Assembly (NCBI RefSeq): GCF_018977255.1
Contig: NW_024704742.1
Location: 102,798,001 to 102,862,000, forward strand
Direction: 5' to 3'
Origin: Callorhinchus milii
Taxonomy: Eukaryota
Length of the DNA stretch: 64,000 nt
Part shown: in pieces, positions 2,257-55,960 of the stretch
How positions within the stretch are numbered: the stretch's first letter is position 1
Layout: each line of letters starts with the position of its first letter
Notes under the pieces: generated by a model
Told to the model about the DNA's origin: nothing
Database searches by the model: none
Seen by the model: the letters and a program-made list of their open reading frames with translations, nothing else
Translations under genes and position numbers: made by a program

Positions 2257-2280
2257 TGGGAAGTTTCTCTGCTCACTTAC

Positions 2281-2870
2281 TTGTTGATGCCCTGGTCGAG
2301 GTAGTGGCTGATGTAGAGTCCTGTGGGCTCCTCGACCAGCTGCCCGCTGTAGTTGAGCTGGAGGGTGTAGTCCTGCCCGGGCTGCAGGTCGCTCTCCAGC
2401 TCGATCACCAGGAACTCATTCACAGCTTCAACCCAAGTGTCCTGGACGGCGGGAGCCCCTCTCGGGCTGATCCCCACCCCGGAGTATTTCAGCTCTTTGC
2501 TGTGGATCAGGACCACCCGCGTCTCCAGGCGGCATCTCAGTGTGACATTGACCTGTCCGCTGAACAGGTACACCCCGCCCTCCCCCGGCTCCAGCCTGGG
2601 CCAGACCTCCACCTGGTAGTGAGAGGGCATGAGGCTGGAGGGCAAACGGGAGTGGTTCCACACCCCAGATCGGCCAGTGGGAGTGGGCTGGGGGGCCGGG
2701 CTGGGGGGCTGCCCCACGGTGGGGGGCACCTCTTTGATGCCAGGCAGCCTGGCTCCGGCATAGAGAATCGCCAGCACAACCACTGCCAGCAGCAGGGCAA
2801 GCAGGAGCAGGGCAAGGAGGGACACCACCTTCCTGCTCACATAGAAACCAGACTGGGATTTGGGTTCCAT
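2281..2870 (-). CDS. LVRN: Laeverin (aminopeptidase Q, M1 family), coding exon 1; gene continues left of the window
   Basis: ATG at 2870 gives MEPKSQSGFYVSRKVVSLLALLLLALLLAVVVLAILY (short tail plus type II TM anchor), a Pro-rich stalk, then WNHSRLPSSLMPSHYQVEVWPRL...FSGQVNVTLRC...LIHS...GLYISHYLDQG. GTAAGT donor begins at 2280 (phase 2). The SGFYVSR start and the position downstream of AP3S1 favour LVRN over ANPEP. Confidence 0.9.
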
Positions 2871-3547
2871 ATCGTGGGGAGAGGTGGCAATCCGAGTCCT
2901 GTTGTGAGATCTGCTGCTCTCTTGGCTTTTATTTTTTTTTGTTACATTTTGCTCCAAGGGATGTGATGAGAAAGGGGCTGAGCCTAATCCCATTTGGACC
3001 AATATCCAATTGACTGGCAATCTGATCTGAGCAGCTTCGGTGAGGTTACACTTAGCGAGTCAACTCCCCCCCAGGATCCCACTTTACCAATGACAGCACA
3101 AAACGTAGTGTTTTCAAACCCCAGTGCCTCCAGTTAACTTTTTAACATAAAGGCTGGAAACTATTTCAGATGGATTAACGTTGCAGTGTGGAAAACAGGA
3201 TGAAAGGCAGCCAGGTTCTTGTTTAAATGAAATGGCCCACTGCAGGCAGCAGAACTGCACAAGAACAGTTTTAAAAAGAGTAAATGTTTATTCCAGACGT
3301 TTTATCAATTTTGTTATATGTACGTTTTTTGGTAAACTTCAGAAAGACAGTACTCTACAAATAGGGTGACGATATTTTGCAAACCAAATCCAGGGCCCAC
3401 ACACATATATATATATATGTTTTTATATGTACACATATATATATGTGTGTATATATAAAAAATTAAGTCACCGCATATCTTGGAGCTGGCAGTACTGGAG
3501 AAGTGTATTGGATTAAGGCTGTATTTCTCTGATGAGTGCATTTGAGG

Positions 3548-4425: not shown

Positions 4426-5238
4426 TGTTCGAAAATAAAATCAGCCAAATCTGTAAGGAAATAACTCTAATTCCTCTAACCAGATATCAGACTGTTTTAT
4501 TACTATTCGTTCGTTATTCCCCAATATCCCGATGGGTCAGACCAAAGGCCAGTACAATCAACAGATCTTATAACAGAATAACACCACTATAGATATCTCG
4601 AGTTCAAGAGTTCAACACTGTGTCTTTACAGCACACAAGCTTGATTCTTCATGCTTTCAGTCTTCTTGCTTACAGCTTTCAATCTTCCATCTGATATCCT
4701 CAGTCTTAGTGTTTCCAGCTCTCAGTCTTCCATCTCCGTCCCTTGTCTCCCCAGCCTGAGACGGCTCCATCTCTCTTATCCTTGTCTCCGCGACCCGGGT
4801 CGGCTCCATCTCCCGTATCTTTGCCTCCGCGACCCGGGATGGCTCCATCTCCCGTATCCTTGTCTCCGCAACCCGGGACGGCTCCATCTCCCGTATCCTT
4901 GTCTCCGCGACCCGGGACGGCTCCATCTCCCGTATCCTTGTCTCCACGACCCGCGACGGCCCCGTACACAAAGTTATCGGAACTCTTATACCAATGTTCA
5001 TCCAATCATGGTGCGGACATTAGATCACCCGGTCGAAATCATGCTGGGTTCACGTGAACATCTCATGGGGTGTACCTGCCTCACACACACAAACACACTG
5101 TCCTTGAGACAGTCCGTTATCTCGTGTACGTGCAGGAAGTTTCAGTCCAGCTGCCCACAACACACTTAACTTAAAAGTTAACCCATTCGCAACATCTATT
5201 GTGATTCTAACATTATACAAAAAGTGTAAATTCTAACA
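4426..5238 (-). repeat. 3' LTR (813 bp) of the non-autonomous element
   Basis: Copy of 5807-6502 with about 17 substitutions outside the repeat array (manual count) and three extra 39-bp units. Confidence 0.92.
4741..4961. repeat. 39-bp tandem repeat (5 full copies plus partial) in LTR U3
   Basis: Unit ccttgtctccgcgacccgggacggctccatctcccgtat at 4741, 4780, 4819, 4858, 4897; partial at 4936. Confidence 0.95.
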
Positions 5239-5249
5239 GTCCCCACCTT
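5239..5249 (-). promoter_or_regulatory. Polypurine tract
   Basis: AAGGTGGGGAC directly before the 3' LTR on the minus strand. Confidence 0.7.
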
Positions 5250-5784
5250 GATACCAAATGAACATGAGGTATCACAAAACTACAAAAAGAATATAATATA
5301 AAATCAGAAAAATAGTACAAGGTCACACATCCTGGGAGTGAGGATGGTACTTCCAGGAGGCAAAGTCTCTTAATGAGCTTTCTCTCGAGTTTCACAGCTC
5401 AGTCGTAACCAACAGGTTATTTCCAGCAACCACAGTCACAATTGAAATCAACATTCAATTACTATTGGTCCCGGTCCCTCTCCTTACCGGAGGAACACTG
5501 ACTGTTCGAACGCCCGAAAGTTACTCCATCACTTACGCAATTTCCACATAAACACACAATATATCAACATATTCGAATGTCGTTCACACGCACATCAGCG
5601 CACTTAAATGCCTGGTGCGATCGCCAGCGTACTCAAACGCCTGACAAGGAGACAATCACAAACTTCCTAGGTAAGGTCAAATATTCAGCTTTAAAAACAA
5701 TCAGACGTTGATGTATTCAAACATGCAACATCATTAAACGTTCGTCAAGGCTTGATTGTACCTCCCTTGTCTGTTTACTGGGGA

Positions 5785-5802
5785 ATCCTGCCGACTACGC
5801 CA
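5785..5802 (-). promoter_or_regulatory. Primer-binding site, tRNA-Ser
   Basis: TGGCGTAGTCGGCAGGAT, 4 nt from the LTR end, complementary to the 3' end of vertebrate tRNA-Ser(AGA/TGA) ...ATCCTGCCGACTACGCCA. Confidence 0.92.
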
Positions 5803-5806
5803 AAAC

Positions 5807-6502
5807 TGTTAGAAAATAAAATCAGCCAAATCTGTAAGGAAATAACGCTAATTCCTCTAACCAGATATCAGACTGTTTTATTATTATTCGTTCGTTATTC
5901 CCCAATATCCCGATGGGTCAGACCAAAGGCCGGTACAATCAACAGATCTTATAACAGAATAGCACCACTATAGATATCTCAAGTTCAAGAGTCCAACACT
6001 GTGTCTTTACAGCACACAAGCTTGATTCTTCATGCTTTCAGTCTTCTTGCTTACAGCTTTCAATCTTCCATCTGATATCCTCAGTCTTAGTGTTTCCAGC
6101 TCTCAGTCTTCCATCTCCGTACCCTTGTCTCCGCAGCCCGAGATGGCTCCATCTCTCTTATCCTCGTCTCCGCGACCCGGGACGGCTCCATCTCCCGTAT
6201 CCTTGTCTCCGCGACCTGGACGGCCCCGTACACAAAGTTATCGAAACCCTTATACCAATGTTCATCCAATCATGGTGCGGCCATTAGATCACCCGGTCGA
6301 AATCATGCTGGGGTCACGTGAACATCTCATGGGGTGTACGTGCCACACACACACAAACACACTGTCCTTGAGACAGTCCGTTATCTCGTGTACGTGCAGG
6401 GAGTTTCAGTCCAGCTGCCCACAACACACTTAACTTAAAAGTTAACCCGTTCGCAACATTTATTGTGATTCTAACATTGTACAAAAAGTGTAAATTCTAA
6501 CA
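5807..6502 (-). repeat. 5' LTR (696 bp) of the non-autonomous element
   Basis: TG...CA with 8-bp terminal inverted repeat. On the minus strand, TATAA near 5950 and AATAAA near 5880. Two full 39-bp U3 repeats plus a partial copy. Confidence 0.92.
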
Positions 6503-7118
6503 ACCGCACCGCCTGATTCGAGTCATACCTCACAAACCGCCAGCAGTACATCTGCACAAATGGCTTCTCCTCCCGCTCTCACTCGGTTACCTGCGGGGTA
6601 CCCCAAGGATCCATCCTTGGCGCCCTCCTCTTTCTGATCTATATGCTCCCTCTTGGGGATGTCATCCGCAGACATGGGGTACATTTCCACATGTATGTGG
6701 ATGACACCCAACTCTAATTTCCACCTCTCTTTGCGACCCCCAGTCCCCTGATGTTCTGTCAGCCTGCCTGTCAGACCTCAGGGGCTGGATGAGGGCAAAT
6801 TTCCTTCAGCTGAACGTTGACAAGACAGAAGCCATACTCTTTGGCTCTCGTCAATGTCTAAAATCTCACGGCTCTCACCTCCTCCACCTACCCTACCTCG
6901 CATTAAAACTCTCCGAACCTGTACGCAACCTAAGCGTCAGGTTCGACCCCCAATTATCCTTCCTCCCCCACATCTGGTCCCTCATCAGCACCGCTTTTTC
7001 CACCTCCAATGCATCATCCGTCTCCGCCAATACCTCTCTCCGAAAGCCACGGAAATCCTGGTCCATGCCTTTGTCACCTCTCAGCTGGACTATTCTAACG
7101 CCCTCCTCGCCGGTCTCC

Positions 7119-9329
7119 TTGCCCCCATCACTTCCCGCACTGTCTCCTACTCCCGCTCCTCCCCCTGGTACACCACCCACCTCCGCTCACTGAAATGCCA
7201 GGTGCGGGCTGCTGAGCGCACCTTTGTCAAATCTGGCCTAACGGTCCACCGACAAATCTGGCTGGACCTCCTCAAAATTTACCGCTCCACTCTAGCCTCG
7301 GCCAAGTCGTCCTTCTACTCCAGGATAATCCTGGAGGCGAAGAACAACCCCAGGCTACTGTTTTCCACCACATCCCGACTCCTCCGTCCCCCCCGCCACC
7401 CCGCGCAGGTCATCTCCTCCAACCTTCACTGCGAGGAGATGCTGGATTTCCTTGAATCCAAGATCAAAGGAATCCGCTCCGCGGTCACTTCCCCTCCAAC
7501 TTCCACCCACCACCCACCCCTTCCCTCCCACACTCCGACTCCTACCCATCCTCCCCTACACACCTTCGTACCCGTTTCCCCACCCTCTGTCACTGAACTC
7601 ATCCTATCCCTAAAACCAACCACCTGCTCCCTTGACCCCATCCCCACTCCACTCCTTATCTCCCAGCTCCATTTTCTTGCCCCACACATCACTGACATCA
7701 TAAACCTGTCCCTCTCCTCTGGCTCTGTCCCCATTCCATTAAAAACTGCCATCATCACGCCCACCCTGAAAAAACCCTCCCTTGATGCGTCGCAGCTATC
7801 AAGCTACCGGCCCATCTCCAACCTCCCCTTTCTCTCCAAGGTCTTGGAAAGAGTTGTCGCCTCCCAACTGCGCTCTTTCCTCTCCACCCATTCTCTTTTT
7901 GAACCCCTTCAGTCAGGTTTCCGTGCTGCTCATAGCACAGAAACTGCCCTGGTCAAGGTCACCAATGATATCCTGACCATCTGTGACCAGGGCTCCCTCT
8001 GTCTCCTCGTCCTCCTCGACCTATCGGCAGCATTCGATACGGTCGACCACGCTATCCTACTCCACCGCTTGTCCTCCCACCTCAACCTTCAAGGCACTGT
8101 CCTTGAATGGTTTAGCTCTTACCTTTCCCACCGTCTTCACTTCGTCTCAACGAATGGCTTCTCCTCCACCCCCCGTACTGTCTCATGTGGTGTCCCTCAG
8201 GGCTCTGTCCTCGGTCCCCTCCTCTTCACCCTCTATATGCTCCCCCTTGGTGACATCATCCGCAAACATGGGGTTAACTTCCACATGTATGCGGATGACA
8301 CCCAACTCTACCTTTCCTCCTCTACTCTCAACTCCACGACCACCGATGTCCTGACAGCCTGCCTGTCCGACATCGAGTCCTGGACGAGAGACAACTTTCT
8401 TCAGCTCAACGTGCGAAAAACCGAGGCCCTCCTGATTGGCTCACGTCAGCGCCTCCGCACCTCAGGCGCTGACACCATCAGCATCCAAGGCTGCACTCTC
8501 CACCTCTCAAAGCCAGTCAGGAACCTCGGCGTTTTGTTCGACCCTGAGCTGTCCTTTCTCCCTCACATCCGCACCACAACTGGCACCGCCTTCCATCACC
8601 TCCGGAATATCGCCAGATTACGGCACTACCTCACCCCTCACGCTGCTGAAACCCTGGTTCACGCCTTTGTCACCTCAAGGCTGGACTATGGGAACTCTCT
8701 CCTCGCCGGCCTTCCCGCACCTCCCTCCACAAGCTGCAGGTCATTCAGAACTCTGCAGCTCGTGTACTGTCCCGCACCAGGCTTCGCGACCACATCACTC
8801 CCACCCTCGCTCGCCTCCACTGGCTCCCCATCCCCCAGAGGATTGATTTCAAGATCCTCATCCTCACCTACAAGGCCATTCACGGCCTTGCTCCCTCCTA
8901 CCTCTCCAACCTACTATCCCCCTACCTACCTGCCCGTACCCTCCGTTCCTCTGGCTCCGGTCTGCTCCACGTCCCCCGCCCCAACCGCCCTACCATCGGT
9001 GGTCGGGCCTTCAGCCTCTCAGCCCCAGGCTCTGGAACTCCATCCCCCAGTGCCTTCGCCTTGCTTCCTCCCTTTCCTCCTTCAAGGCCGGTCTCAAAAC
9101 CTTTCTCTTTGACCGTGCCTTCAGCTCCCCTCTCGACTCTCTTCCTCCTCCTCGCTCCCTCCCTTCCCTCCCCTCACCCTGACCATTTCCCCCCTCCTCT
9201 CTCCCTCCCTTCCCTCCCCTCACCATTTCCCCCCTGCTCGGGTCATGACCCAACTGTGCAGCGCCTTGGGACGTCCTCCTGACGTGAAAGGCGCTCTATA
9301 AATGGAATCTTGTTGTTGTTGTTGTTGTT
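7119..9329 (+). mobile_element. Young 5'-truncated L2 LINE with near-intact reverse transcriptase
   Basis: [59 protein letters not shown]. One frameshift near 8718. Stem-loop tail plus (ttg)n. Probable TSD GTCTCC at 7113-7118 and 9330-9335. Confidence 0.92.
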
Positions 9330-15652: not shown

Positions 15653-15725
15653 CCATAGAGTCATAGAATTATACAGCACAGAAGCAGGCCATTCAGCCCA
15701 TCATGTCTGTGCTGGTTCTTTTAAA

Positions 15726-17097
15726 AGGATTGATCTTTTGACACGGTACACATCTGTCCGCCACATTCTGGGCATGCTTCCTGAAGCCTTTTCCACATTA
15801 ATGTCTCGCAAATCTAGCTACCATCTGCTGAGGGGCTAGATGTCCCCAAGAGTGGATCTGTTGGGCCAAAAATGCCATTAAAGACTGGGGAGCTACTGTT
15901 CTTTGAGTGTCATGTTGTCGCCATATTCCATCTGAACCCAAATGCATTCCTTCTTCCATCCACATCCATATCTCTTCCTTAGTAGGCATAGTAAGTTTCA
16001 CCAACTTAGCAATCTCCGTTTTCAATCCGGCCATAAAAGCCGCTTTTAAAGATCCATCAGCCACTTGGTCCAACGCATCTGGACCGTTGTTACCAGCCAA
16101 TCCGGAATGTTTTATCCATACAGCCCGAAATCTATCGTCATACTGTCGCACCGACTCGGTATTTTCCTGCTGACAAGCCGTAATTTTACTCCAATCAATT
16201 CGAGAAGGACCTTGGTTACGGAGCCAAGTTTGAATAGCCGTCCATCCTGCTTCCAGTAAAGCCCCTAATGGCCCCAGGGCTGCTGTTGCTTGATCTTGTA
16301 GTAATCTAGCATCCCTGCCAGTTGCCATAACTGTTAATATTTGCACCCCATCTTGTGGGTGTAAGCCGTAAATAGTACAAAGACGGTTAAGCTCCTCCCA
16401 AGTCTTCAGCGCACCTTTTCGAGGATCAGATAGCGATTTAGACCATTTGCTAATTTTTTCAGGTTCCGCCGGCAAATGTTCGTGATGTCCTACGCATCCG
16501 TCATGAGCTCCTTCCACAGGGAGCGCGGCATTTCCCGGCGGTACCTCACCGTGACTTAGCTGGTATCTCGTCCTTACGGGTCTTAGTTGGACTGACGGCA
16601 GAGGGGGTCCCCATGGGTTGGGGCAGCAAGTTGACAGATCCCATGGATCACACTCGTTCTTTCTATTATAAGCCAGAGGGGCTGACGCAGACAGCAATGG
16701 TGGATACAACGAGCCACTTTTAACAGGTCTTCCACCGACATTACTTTTACCAGCCGCTTCAGCTTTAAGCTTTTCAATCTCAGCATTTTTACTGTCGATT
16801 TGCTTGTTTTTTGTGTAGTTGTTCTGCCATTGCAGCCAACTGCTTCTTAACTTTATTCATTTCAGCATCGTGTTGAGTATCTTTCATTGTTTCATTCCGC
16901 TGTCGCAACTGACTTGTTGTAATCATTGCCAATCGGGTTTGAGACTTCCCTTTTAAACGGGTCATCTTACCCCATACTTTCTGAATGTTTGGCAGGGCCC
17001 ACTGGCTGCTGCTTATGCCATACTTTTTTTCAATGCTTTCCTGTAATTCTTGGAGCTTTAAATTGGTCTGCAAAGTCTTAGTTAATGTTTCCAACAT
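15726..17097 (-). pseudogene. gag: Retroviral gag (coiled-coil N-terminus, late-domain-like LYPPL, capsid) fused in frame to the integrase N-terminal HHCC region
   Basis: ORFs 16789-17139 and 15798-16709 join if one base is removed from the A6 run at 16807-16812. MHR QENTESVRQYDDRF (Q-x3-E-x4-Y-x2-RF). After LTMPT the frame reads KEEIWMW...QIHSWGHL...RH*CGKGFRKHAQNVADRCVPCQKIN. Confidence 0.85.
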
Positions 17098-17316
17098 TTC
17101 AGTCGCGTTTATCCAAAATCCGAAAAATAGGCTATTCAATTTTTATCAAGCTTCAGTCTCGACCTTCGCACACAATTCTTTCAGGGATCACAAGAAAATT
17201 CAAACAGCTCAACACCCGAGACGAAGGAATTTTTCCAGAGGATTCTTTACCTCAAGTCACGTCTGACTTTGTTACTGGGTCTTGGGATATCTATGTCGGT
17301 TTCCTTGTCTTCAGTG

Positions 17317-17334
17317 ATCCTGCCGACTACGCCA
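17317..17334 (-). promoter_or_regulatory. Primer-binding site, tRNA-Ser
   Basis: Identical 18-mer to 5785-5802, again 4 nt from the LTR end. Confidence 0.92.
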
Positions 17335-17793
17335 GAATTGTTGGGTTACTTCTCAAAGCGTCTTTATGTGTGTAAAATAATCTTCAGACTTCAGGTAGAT
17401 TTCAAAAGTTCTTCTTTATTACCGCACTGCAGAAAGGTTACAGTCCAGGCACACTCTTGTGGTTCGAACAAAGAAAAACTTGGCACACATTCCATATATA
17501 GGTATAATGCTCCGATCACAATGCTGTAATTAAGTTTTGTGCCTACCACTCTAATACCATCCCCTTCTAGCTGTCTCTCGTATCCCTGACTCGGCCTCTT
17601 TAACTGTTCTAATATGAACTTGTTATTCAGTTACTCTTTCCTGTCTTTGTTCCCCATCCTTGGGCAGCTCTCTGGTCCATTCCAGTTTAACCTACTCTAT
17701 GCTGATTGTAAGACCACGAGCCTGAGTAGTTTTTGTACAGGGTCACTATCAGGCATTCAGGCCAGAACTCCTGTTCTGCTTCAGGAGCCCTCA

Positions 17794-18420
17794 GATTATC
17801 GATCCACCCACCAGTGGAAATACTTTCTCCTTGTTCACCCTATTGAATCCCCTCATAGTTATGGAAAACTTATATTAAGTCTCCTCTTAACCTTCTCTGC
17901 TCCAATGAGAATAATCCTAGCTCCTAATCTCTCCTGATAACTGAAGTCTCTCATTCCTGGTAAATCTCCTTTGCACCCTCTCCAATGCCTTTACATCCTT
18001 CCTAAAGTGTGGGGCCCAGAACTACTCTAGCTGAGGTCTAACCAGTGTTTTATAAAGGTTCATCATAACTTCCTGACTTGTGTATGCTATGTCCCTATTT
18101 ATAAAGCCTAGTATCCTGTATGCTTTTTTAACAGCTTTATCTTCCTGTCCTGCCACCTTCAAAGATTTACTATATATAACCCCAGGTCTCTCTGTTCCTT
18201 GTACCATCAGTTTATATTGTTTCTCCTCATTCTTCCTCCCAAAATGCCTCACTTCACATTTCTTCACATTAAACTTAATCTGCCACGTGCCTGCCCATTT
18301 TACTAGTCTATATACGTCCATTTGCAGTCTGCTACTATCCTCCTCATTGTTTACTACTTTTCCTAGCTTAGTATCATCTGCAAACATGGAAATTGTACTC
18401 CCTGTATCCGAGTCCAGGTC
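17794..18420 (-). mobile_element. CR1 ORF2 3' part (inverted); its extreme tail is at 15653-15722
   Basis: FADDTKLG...YKTLVRPQLE on the minus strand. Colinear with the CR1 at 59659-60222. Confidence 0.9.
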
Positions 18421-18474
18421 TCCCTAGAGTACACAGCAAGTTTTCTCTTAAAGATGGTGATGCTTTTAAAGATT

Positions 18475-54609: not shown

Positions 54610-55960
54610 CAGCAGAAACCCGTTTGCAGACACCTCGGCAGTCCAACCACCTCACAATTGCAGGCACGTTTTCACAGTCTCTTTCACTGTCCACTGTTTG
54701 CTTCAGTAAACCGGGGACCTCACTATTCAGGACAATGATCATTGACTGCAGACTGTCAGCTACAAACACTCCTCTGCTACAAACCTGTGCACAAACCCGG
54801 GCCTCTGCGCACTGTTTACGCAATGCTGCTAATGTGGGCCAAGTAGGCTCTGGTCGCACATGCATGGCGCGGGCAGTGGTAGGATTCCAGAAGTGGCGCG
54901 ATCGGGAAATTGGCTTCGCTCGGCGCCTGCGGCCTAAACTGAGCTCCTGAGACAAATTCTTGGTAAATGCTGTATTCAGAGCATGTGGTTTGTGTTTACC
55001 ATCGTTTGTTTTGATTTAGTGACTGTTAACAAGTGTTGTAAACATGCCACCATGAAAGGAGTTGCTATCACCTGAGGGAGAGGACTTGATCAAGAACACT
55101 GAGGCCAAAAGTCATAGACAGTTACCTGTGATCTATGGCATTGACAGAACACAAGTTGAATGCATTCAAGGAAGGCTGAATATATGACAGCTTTTGAAGA
55201 AAATCAACAACCTGATAGAAAATGTATGTGATTGAACTCTCAGTATGAAGACATTGATAAACTGACATGGGAGTGGTTCCAGCCTGCCCGTGATCTCAAC
55301 ATGCCTGTGTCTGGCTCTTGATGAGACTGGCTTCAAGGCATCAAATGACTGGCTTGAGCCTTTCAAATCCAGACACAATATTGGATCTACAATTGTGTCT
55401 GGTGAAAAGGCTGACACTGCGCCTGCTATTGTTGACAACTGGAAACAGAAACTCCCTGAGATTACAGCTGGCTATGCACCCAAGGACATCTTTAGCACGG
55501 ACAAATCTAGTGTTTTTAGGGCTCCTCCTGACAGGAACCTTCATGGTGATGGCTGCACTGGTGGGAAGAAATCTGAAGACCGTATCACCATATCTTTGAC
55601 AGTCAACATGGAGGAAGATTTTGAATGGACAGTTGTGATAGGGAAGGCTGCCAAGCCCCATGCCTTTAGGAACTTGAACAGCAAGACTCAGCTTCCCATC
55701 ACATGATACAGCAACCAAAAGGCATGGATGACCTGTGCCATTTTTTCTTAAAAAACAGAGTGACCTCAGACCTTCAATAGAAAGATGCAAACACAGAGCA
55801 GGTGCTGTTTCTGGACAATGCCCCAGCTCAACTTCACAATATTTCTACTCTAACCAATGTCAAGTTAGTGTTTTTTCCCAGCTAACACCACATCCATCCT
55901 CCAGTCCCTTGACCAAGGCATCCATCTAGAAGATTAACCTGTATTAGAATGCTGCTTCGC
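54610..55960 (+). mobile_element. Tigger/pogo DNA transposon, 3' truncated, with transposase pseudogene (about 55045-55950)
   Basis: TA|CAG start. CENP-B-like FKASNDWLEPFKSRHNI, DIFSTDKS, GGKKSEDRIT, VIGKAAKPHAF, *YSNQKAWMT, LFLDNAP, LQSLDQG motifs with stops and frameshifts. Confidence 0.88.

Follow-up and report, generated by a model that had tools for sequence, protein, structure and literature searches.

A gag-integrase fusion in the Callorhinchus milii genome as a probable decayed deletion derivative of a small endogenous retrovirus family

Our analysis of a 64,000-nucleotide stretch of the Callorhinchus milii genome (hereafter the window) supports the identification of a minus-strand locus as a retroviral gag joined in frame to the integrase zinc-finger region and lying behind its own long terminal repeat (LTR), as a preliminary description of the sequence had proposed (Table 1). 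We consider it very probable that the locus arose from a small endogenous retrovirus (ERV) family as a non-autonomous deletion derivative and that this copy is now dead, having decayed neutrally. The locus bears the marks by which such derivatives are recognized: the same breakpoint occurs at independent insertions, and the elements that act in cis are kept (LTR, primer-binding site and leader), with the enzymes lost and the parental type present in the genome as the sister copy C28.

Table 1. Features of the element and its flanks in the window, in the order in which the element is read
Feature	Position	Strand	Description
Host LINE, upstream part	17784..18423	-	18055-17796 matches window 60225-59954, part of the same sister LINE as the 3' tip
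5' LTR	17339..17783	-	445 nt, TG...CA; 85-95% to 17 further LTRs (all 18 candidates scored)
Primer-binding site	17317..17334	-	Complementary to tRNA-Ser(AGA)
5' leader	17114..17316	-	89-92% to sister copies
Scar of ~110-nt deletion, gag start lost	17105..17113	-	Pairwise alignments with four sisters; private to the window copy
Gag N-terminal remnant, coiled-coil-rich	16789..17097	-	Internal ATG, 102 codons open, then stop
Frameshifting indel	16795..16805	-	Directly downstream of the A6 run; C28 copy in the same state
LYPPL, late-domain-like motif	16695..16709	-	Seen in translation
Capsid (CA), MHR-like motif	15981..16520	-	AlphaFold2, Foldseek and homologues; C-terminal end removed by the junction
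Gag/pre-integrase deletion junction	15980..15981	-	In frame, within imperfect donor homology; identical in G000:C2:2180452-2182593
Integrase N-terminal region	15726..15980	-	H-x3-H; premature stop 15798-15800; CxxC beyond the stop
Host LINE, 3' tip	15654..15727	-	Matches window 59730-59657 of the sister LINE; brought next to the provirus when a later deletion occurred

The retroviral architecture of the locus can be read from its 5' end onward. The LTR contains an AATAAA near 17417, read from the sequence, and the complement of the primer-binding site corresponds to the 3' end of genomic tRNA genes, which ARAGORN called as tRNA-Ser(aga) at all three of the loci inspected. Two overlapping frames follow on the minus strand, one of 102 codons from the ATG at 17097 and a stop-to-stop frame of 352 aa from 16856 to 15798, the latter containing LYPPL, a capsid with an MHR-like motif, the in-frame junction, pre-integrase sequence and H-x3-H. 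These motifs, and the CxxC past the stop, had all been recognized at the outset, and we see them as well; LYPPL is a putative late-domain-like motif. The earlier reading that nucleocapsid (NC), protease (PR), reverse transcriptase (RT) and RNase H (RH) had been deleted without breaking the frame was also borne out, as all four are missing from the window copy and present in C28. The upstream part of the interrupted LINE holds an RT-like frame at 18423-18022, and the N calls previously remarked on in the assembly number three within the window (28433, 53376 and 53476).

Profile searches recognized the proteins faintly. For the capsid, the Pfam family Retrotrans_gag reached E 3e-4, under its cut-off, and Integrase_H2C2 scored E 0.031 for the window piece beyond the stop and E 2.2e-8 in C2, where the frame is uninterrupted. 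No match to the capsid came from word-seeded protein searches or from phmmer against solved structures; an unindexed protein search gave 47 Gag-like homologues of the capsid region at E up to 0.001, and among ten that were looked up eight could be named, all of them from sharks or bony fish. The capsid is 39-43% identical to Scyliorhinus and Pimephales proteins, the catshark proteins being the best Gag matches, and its best protein homologues, at no more than 43% identity, belong to multi-member clusters. Gag_p30 clusters from the ESM Atlas, none above 0.89, gave no more than a lead. Structure prediction from the single sequence was unusable (pLDDT 40), and an AlphaFold2 model from an alignment of 27 sequences, including 26 homologues, is all-helical with a pLDDT of 86.8. 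The comparison with retroviral CA suggested in the preliminary description placed this model closest to the MLV capsid (Foldseek; 6hwx, E 2e-4, and 6hww, E 5e-4), followed by the HTLV-1, BLV and HIV-1 capsids, so that the capsid of the window copy is predicted to adopt an orthoretroviral-type fold.

The element belongs to a family whose other members reveal what it has lost. A DNA search of the species' own genome, in which 40 of 195 candidates were scored, found at least seven other loci that retain internal sequence; with the window copy counted, the family comprises at least eight such loci and 18 LTRs. A 5-bp target-site duplication is perfect at three of four solo LTRs, carries one mismatch at the fourth, and is also present at C28 and C2; at the window locus, with its 3' end deleted, it is not readable. 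The sister copies carry a zinc knuckle, a retroviral protease, RT, a tether, RNase H and integrase. C28 (L013, G000:C28:782585-789025) keeps both LTRs as well as gag-pro-pol, all of whose frames are broken, and is the only copy to hold the PR-RT segment among the 40 of 123 candidates scored; its Gag has one CCHC knuckle, its protease frame continues straight into RT-like sequence, and the roughly 250 nt between its integrase remnant and 3' LTR hold no env. In C2 (G000:C2:2180452-2182593), capsid, zinc finger and integrase core can be read through without interruption. Three further copies, C5, C10 and C30 (L015, L016 and L017), share a second, different internal deletion with a common breakpoint, and deletion derivatives are therefore usual in this family. 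C5 and C30 carry an LTR unlike that of the window copy over the same leader and gag, a pattern that points to LTR swapping by recombination.

Several observations on the sister copies stand apart from the history of the window copy. The two LTRs of C28 differ at 4 of 445 sites, and over 1331 sites of its interior there are 37 private changes (~2.8%) along with several insertions; because the LTRs are far more alike than the interior suggests, probably through LTR gene conversion, dating by LTRs would mislead. L016 (G000:C10:22105311) and L018 (C10:21596040) differ at one of 253 sites in the integrase segment, which may reflect a recent duplication, gene conversion or an assembly duplicate. Downstream of the C30 copy and in the opposite orientation lies a 222-aa frame (L019:2169-2834, plus strand) that has no Pfam match and resembles a viral surface protein by eye only. 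Five more distant genomic matches to the capsid (37-39%) belong to another lineage and were set aside.

From its sequence, the family is best explained as a small, fish-type ERV family related to class I. Its Pol is 42-51% identical to its nine best hits, teleost ERV Gag-Pol proteins (Astyanax, Alosa, Coilia) with which it groups at an SH-aLRT of 100, and teleost ERV Pol proteins are also the nearest to its RNase H-integrase region. These teleost proteins, and the catshark and minnow ERV Gags, are unnamed annotation products and not a described family, and the window copy differs from them in lacking NC, PR, RT and RH. In a quick tree of RNase H-integrase regions from 45 chosen rows, the family forms a clade sister to, and not within, the gamma/epsilon group, at an SH-aLRT of 90, below the starred level. 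Likeness to class I retroviruses extends to the best structure matches, which are the MLV capsid and the RT-RNase H of MLV/XMRV (E 4e-45), and to the presence of a tether with RNase H; the family differs from them in its 5-bp target-site duplication, that of gammaretroviruses being 4 bp, and in that C28 lacks an env between integrase and 3' LTR. Compared with gamma/epsilon-like records, Pol is 31-35% identical (E 1e-57 to 1e-73). Its best segment against L060, a 10,688-nt viral record that we take from its length to be snakehead retrovirus, is 28% identical (E 5e-14), and the two are separate in the tree; on these grounds we rejected membership of the snakehead-retrovirus (SnRV)-like CmiERV lineage I.

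Published surveys offer partial points of contact. The study of elephant shark CmiERV lineages I-III, in the sections we drew on, counted only env-bearing elements (PMC4422223). The CmiERV of scaffold 2, placed there in the snakehead-retrovirus-like lineage I, has the same primer-site text and spacer as the window element, but its LTR end and leader, as printed in those sections, are different, and the capsid motif of the window element gave no match in the portion of the CmiERV dataset consulted, in which line breaks could hide it (PMC4422223). For cartilaginous fish, the consulted part of PMC4977317 lists SnRV-like and epsilon-like lineages. The family was not found in the freely accessible literature searched and is apparently uncatalogued.

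The junction carries most of the argument for a copied derivative. A search of the genome for the same gag/IN junction, as had been advised, found it in C2, one of the seven other loci with internal sequence, and at 15981/15980 the two copies agree to the base. Since C2 has its own flanks and its own duplication, the deletion must have preceded at least one round of copying, and these flanks also argue against C2 being a segmental duplicate of the window locus. Both copies further share a 15-nt gap at 16759, against four other copies that cover the site, but the informative sites do not group them (one of twelve two-versus-three splits). In C28, the two donor stretches are alike along some 40 nt, in the same reading frame, with a local alignment score of 23 that only 20 of 3000 random pairs of positions reach. 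Retroviral reverse transcriptase is known to switch templates at homology of this sort, and the homology at the breakpoints suggests such a switch here; the in-frame resemblance of the donor sides may also explain why the frame was kept. The second deletion, that of C5, C10 and C30, has a donor score of 14, reached by 1013 of 3000 random pairs, and template switching at homology was thus not the family's only route.

In the history that we favor, a template switch during reverse transcription of a gag-pro-pol parent would have carried synthesis from near the end of the capsid to just before the integrase zinc finger, dropping NC, PR, RT and RH, and the in-frame similarity of the two stretches may have saved the frame. 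The shortened RNA, retaining LTR, primer site and leader, would then have been copied, presumably in trans by the enzymes of a helper, to the at least two sites, window and C2, that share the junction.

The fused Gag-integrase might instead have been useful to the element or its host while the family was active, by packaging in cis or by interference with the parent virus, and have decayed only later. We regard this as very improbable: the frame kept at the junction, the continuous reading of C2 from capsid through zinc finger to integrase core and the arrival at two sites are what it would lead one to expect, but one random deletion in three keeps the frame, the donor homology supplies a mechanical reason for it, the more often copied derivative of the family (that of C5, C10 and C30) drops most of the capsid, and neither branch shows an excess of synonymous change (ratios 0.93 and 0.66, neither significant). 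We give almost no credence to an origin of the junction from back-copied spliced viral RNA, or at a recombination hot spot through gene conversion or two separate deletions, because, even if donor homology could favor recurrence and the frameshift common to C28 means sequence exchange between copies or parallel mutation, no GT..AG is found at the junction, the breakpoint is base-identical in both copies and the 15-nt gap is common to them as well. A deletion derivative copied onward, as we prefer to read the locus, recalls recKoRV, a defective ERV derivative mobilized again in trans, which also lost coding capacity by recombination, kept its cis-elements and was copied on with a common breakpoint; according to the portions of that report consulted, recKoRV arose by recombination with another element, whereas the window element arose by internal deletion, is old and has two copies only (PMC6112702).

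The preliminary description had called the gag near-intact, taking the ATG at 17097 as the start of the protein and one extra A in an A6 run, perhaps a read error, as its only lesion; the sister copies contradict each of these points. At 17105-17113 the window copy lacks about 110 nt that all four sisters covering the site possess (C2, C28, C5 and C30), and in these the gag frame begins further upstream. Because the gag start lies in this lost segment, the ATG at 17097 is internal; it aligns with about residue 33 of a fish homologue, and the N-terminal remnant is 36% identical to the fish ERV Gag P0003 from residue 28 of that protein onward. A 148-nt contig, reaching past the scar on one side by 31 letters, the minimum for a bridge, spans it with 0 differences in sequencing runs X1 and X2; both runs belong to a single study, and the source of the assembly may be among them. 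The A6 run has equal length in three of five sisters (C2, C5 and C10) and contains substitutions in the other two. The frameshifting indel lies instead at about 16800, outside the homopolymer, and its presence at a second locus tells against a read error: C28 shares the shifted state and four sisters do not. At this site about half the depth of run X1 (21.7 of 42.8) is without the sister state and X2 has the sister state only, though contig depth is not informative on zygosity; the frameshift common to C28 may have arisen twice or before insertion.

Further lesions follow downstream. The stop at 15798 is private to the window copy in the assembly, C2 reading on into the integrase core, and its state appears in no contig of the four runs, which, the contigs being filtered, is weak evidence either way; neither this stop nor the frameshift is confirmed in other individuals. 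In the family profile the window copy extends to position 223 and the MLV capsid match spans positions 150-252, so that the end of the capsid was removed by the junction; the sampled profile positions 228-252 are filled in 19 of 26 homologues. The first AUG of the capsid frame comes at 16328, when roughly one third of the capsid has already been passed. The two flanks represent halves of a single LINE tail, of which about 210 nt are gone together with the 3' end of the provirus, and a later deletion must therefore have taken the rest of the integrase and the 3' LTR. No intact ORF over the capsid is present at the window locus, and the copy most likely makes no capsid protein today.

The substitutions are in keeping with this picture of decay. 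Private changes number 50 in 1403 sites (~3.6%). Those in coding sequence, scored where two or more sisters agree and with the break region excluded, comprise 24 nonsynonymous and 9 synonymous changes over 704 and 247 sites, a ratio of 0.93 (p 0.50 against neutrality) in a test that rests on 33 changes, and six sisters give ratios of 0.60-1.43; the private changes in the window copy are neutral. G-to-A editing was considered and not accepted: 17 of the 50 private substitutions are G-to-A, with a Fisher p of 0.058 and no 3' motif, and outside CpG the window copy (15726-17330) has 16 G-to-A against 7 C-to-T changes, compared with 14 against 20 in the pooled sisters. No run on record as RNA contains the stretch; runs X5 and X6, guessed to be RNA, have only contigs over the element, those listed differing from it at 3-6 positions, and expression is not something that contigs can reveal.

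An earlier suggestion, that the locus is a recently copied deletion-derivative ERV, holds for the deletion derivative, whose junction recurs at a second insertion, and fails for its recency. The closest copy, C2, differs at 85 of 1351 sites (K2P 0.066, or 6.6%), the window LTR lies at a K2P of 0.054-0.079 from seven others, and gag differs across copies by 0.05-0.09 in a star-like pattern; judged by these divergences, the window copy is not recent. LTR-pair dating is impossible at this locus. A K2P of 0.066 corresponds to about 150 million years at the rate of 2.2e-10 per site per year assumed in the consulted part of PMC4422223, and to about 15 million years at a mammalian rate, both values being upper bounds because change during replication is included. 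In the last steps of the proposed history, the window copy would have inserted into the LINE tail and decayed without selection, through the loss of the gag start, the premature stop, the private substitutions and the deletion of the 3' half with host DNA that its sequence displays.

The preliminary description had entertained co-option as a capsid gene analogous to Fv1 or Arc. This record leaves hardly any room for such a gene, expressed from the LTR and broken only through assembly errors or in a null allele. It would account for a capsid that folds with confidence, an LTR and leader in place and a 352-aa frame without a stop, and neither the stop nor the frameshift is confirmed in run X2. 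The deletion of the gag start is nevertheless seen in two runs, the frameshift is common to a second locus, the capsid end is lost, no capsid-frame AUG precedes 16328, and neutral private changes mark what is one copy of a multicopy family; nor is the long frame special, since one of the sisters contains a comparably long frame interrupted by one stop. Fv1, Arc, PNMA and RTL are likewise retroelement capsid sequences in host chromosomes, but, in the parts of the sources consulted, they have intact ORFs, mostly under purifying selection, at orthologous sites, whereas the window copy is broken and neutral (PMC11011659, PMC4977317). In domesticated capsid genes that selection is mostly clear, with 0.03 for Arc and 0.04 for RTL6 in the portion consulted (PMC11011659). 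We also think it very unlikely that a Gag-integrase fusion without nucleocapsid, protease and RT mattered during the family's active period, perhaps as an interfering Gag, and that an unbroken, expressed Fv1-like allele or orthologue survives in further individuals or in related cartilaginous fish, with the assembled copy as a null allele, as such an allele would require several lesions to be absent at once.

Other elements share the window with the locus. On the minus strand at 4426-6502 lies a 2.1-kb non-coding LTR element (LTRs 6502-5807 and 5238-4426) with the same tRNA-Ser primer site at 5802-5785, a polypurine tract, a 4-bp duplication and an interior of about 570 nt in which no long frame is seen; three of four other primer-site loci inspected match it, and the genome holds 45 primer-site matches. 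Stretches of 17 and 21 nt in its LTR end and leader recur in the CmiERV from scaffold 2, as far as the consulted sections give that sequence (PMC4422223), and it may be a miniature non-autonomous partner of the SnRV-like CmiERV lineage. Both LTR elements lie upstream of, and in the same orientation as, the first coding exon of an M1 aminopeptidase gene (2277-3059, minus strand; Peptidase_M1_N, E 1.5e-14), at distances of about 1.4 kb and 12.7 kb, and a promoter role for them is without support. The plus strand carries a 763-aa open LINE ORF2 piece from a fairly young copy (6821-9112; RT domain, E 1.3e-36) and a Tc5/pogo-like transposase remnant (55266-55706; E 4.7e-5).

As it stands, the locus is one more decayed ERV derivative and matters little in itself. 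It adds a small, apparently uncatalogued ERV family to the Callorhinchus milii genome and illustrates cleanly how gag-pol homology may lead to an in-frame deletion resembling a designed fusion. Capsid-derived restriction factors have been proposed, and not shown, for fish in the consulted part of PMC4977317, and an intact allele under selection, if there were one, would be a candidate for such a factor in a jawed vertebrate that branched off very early.
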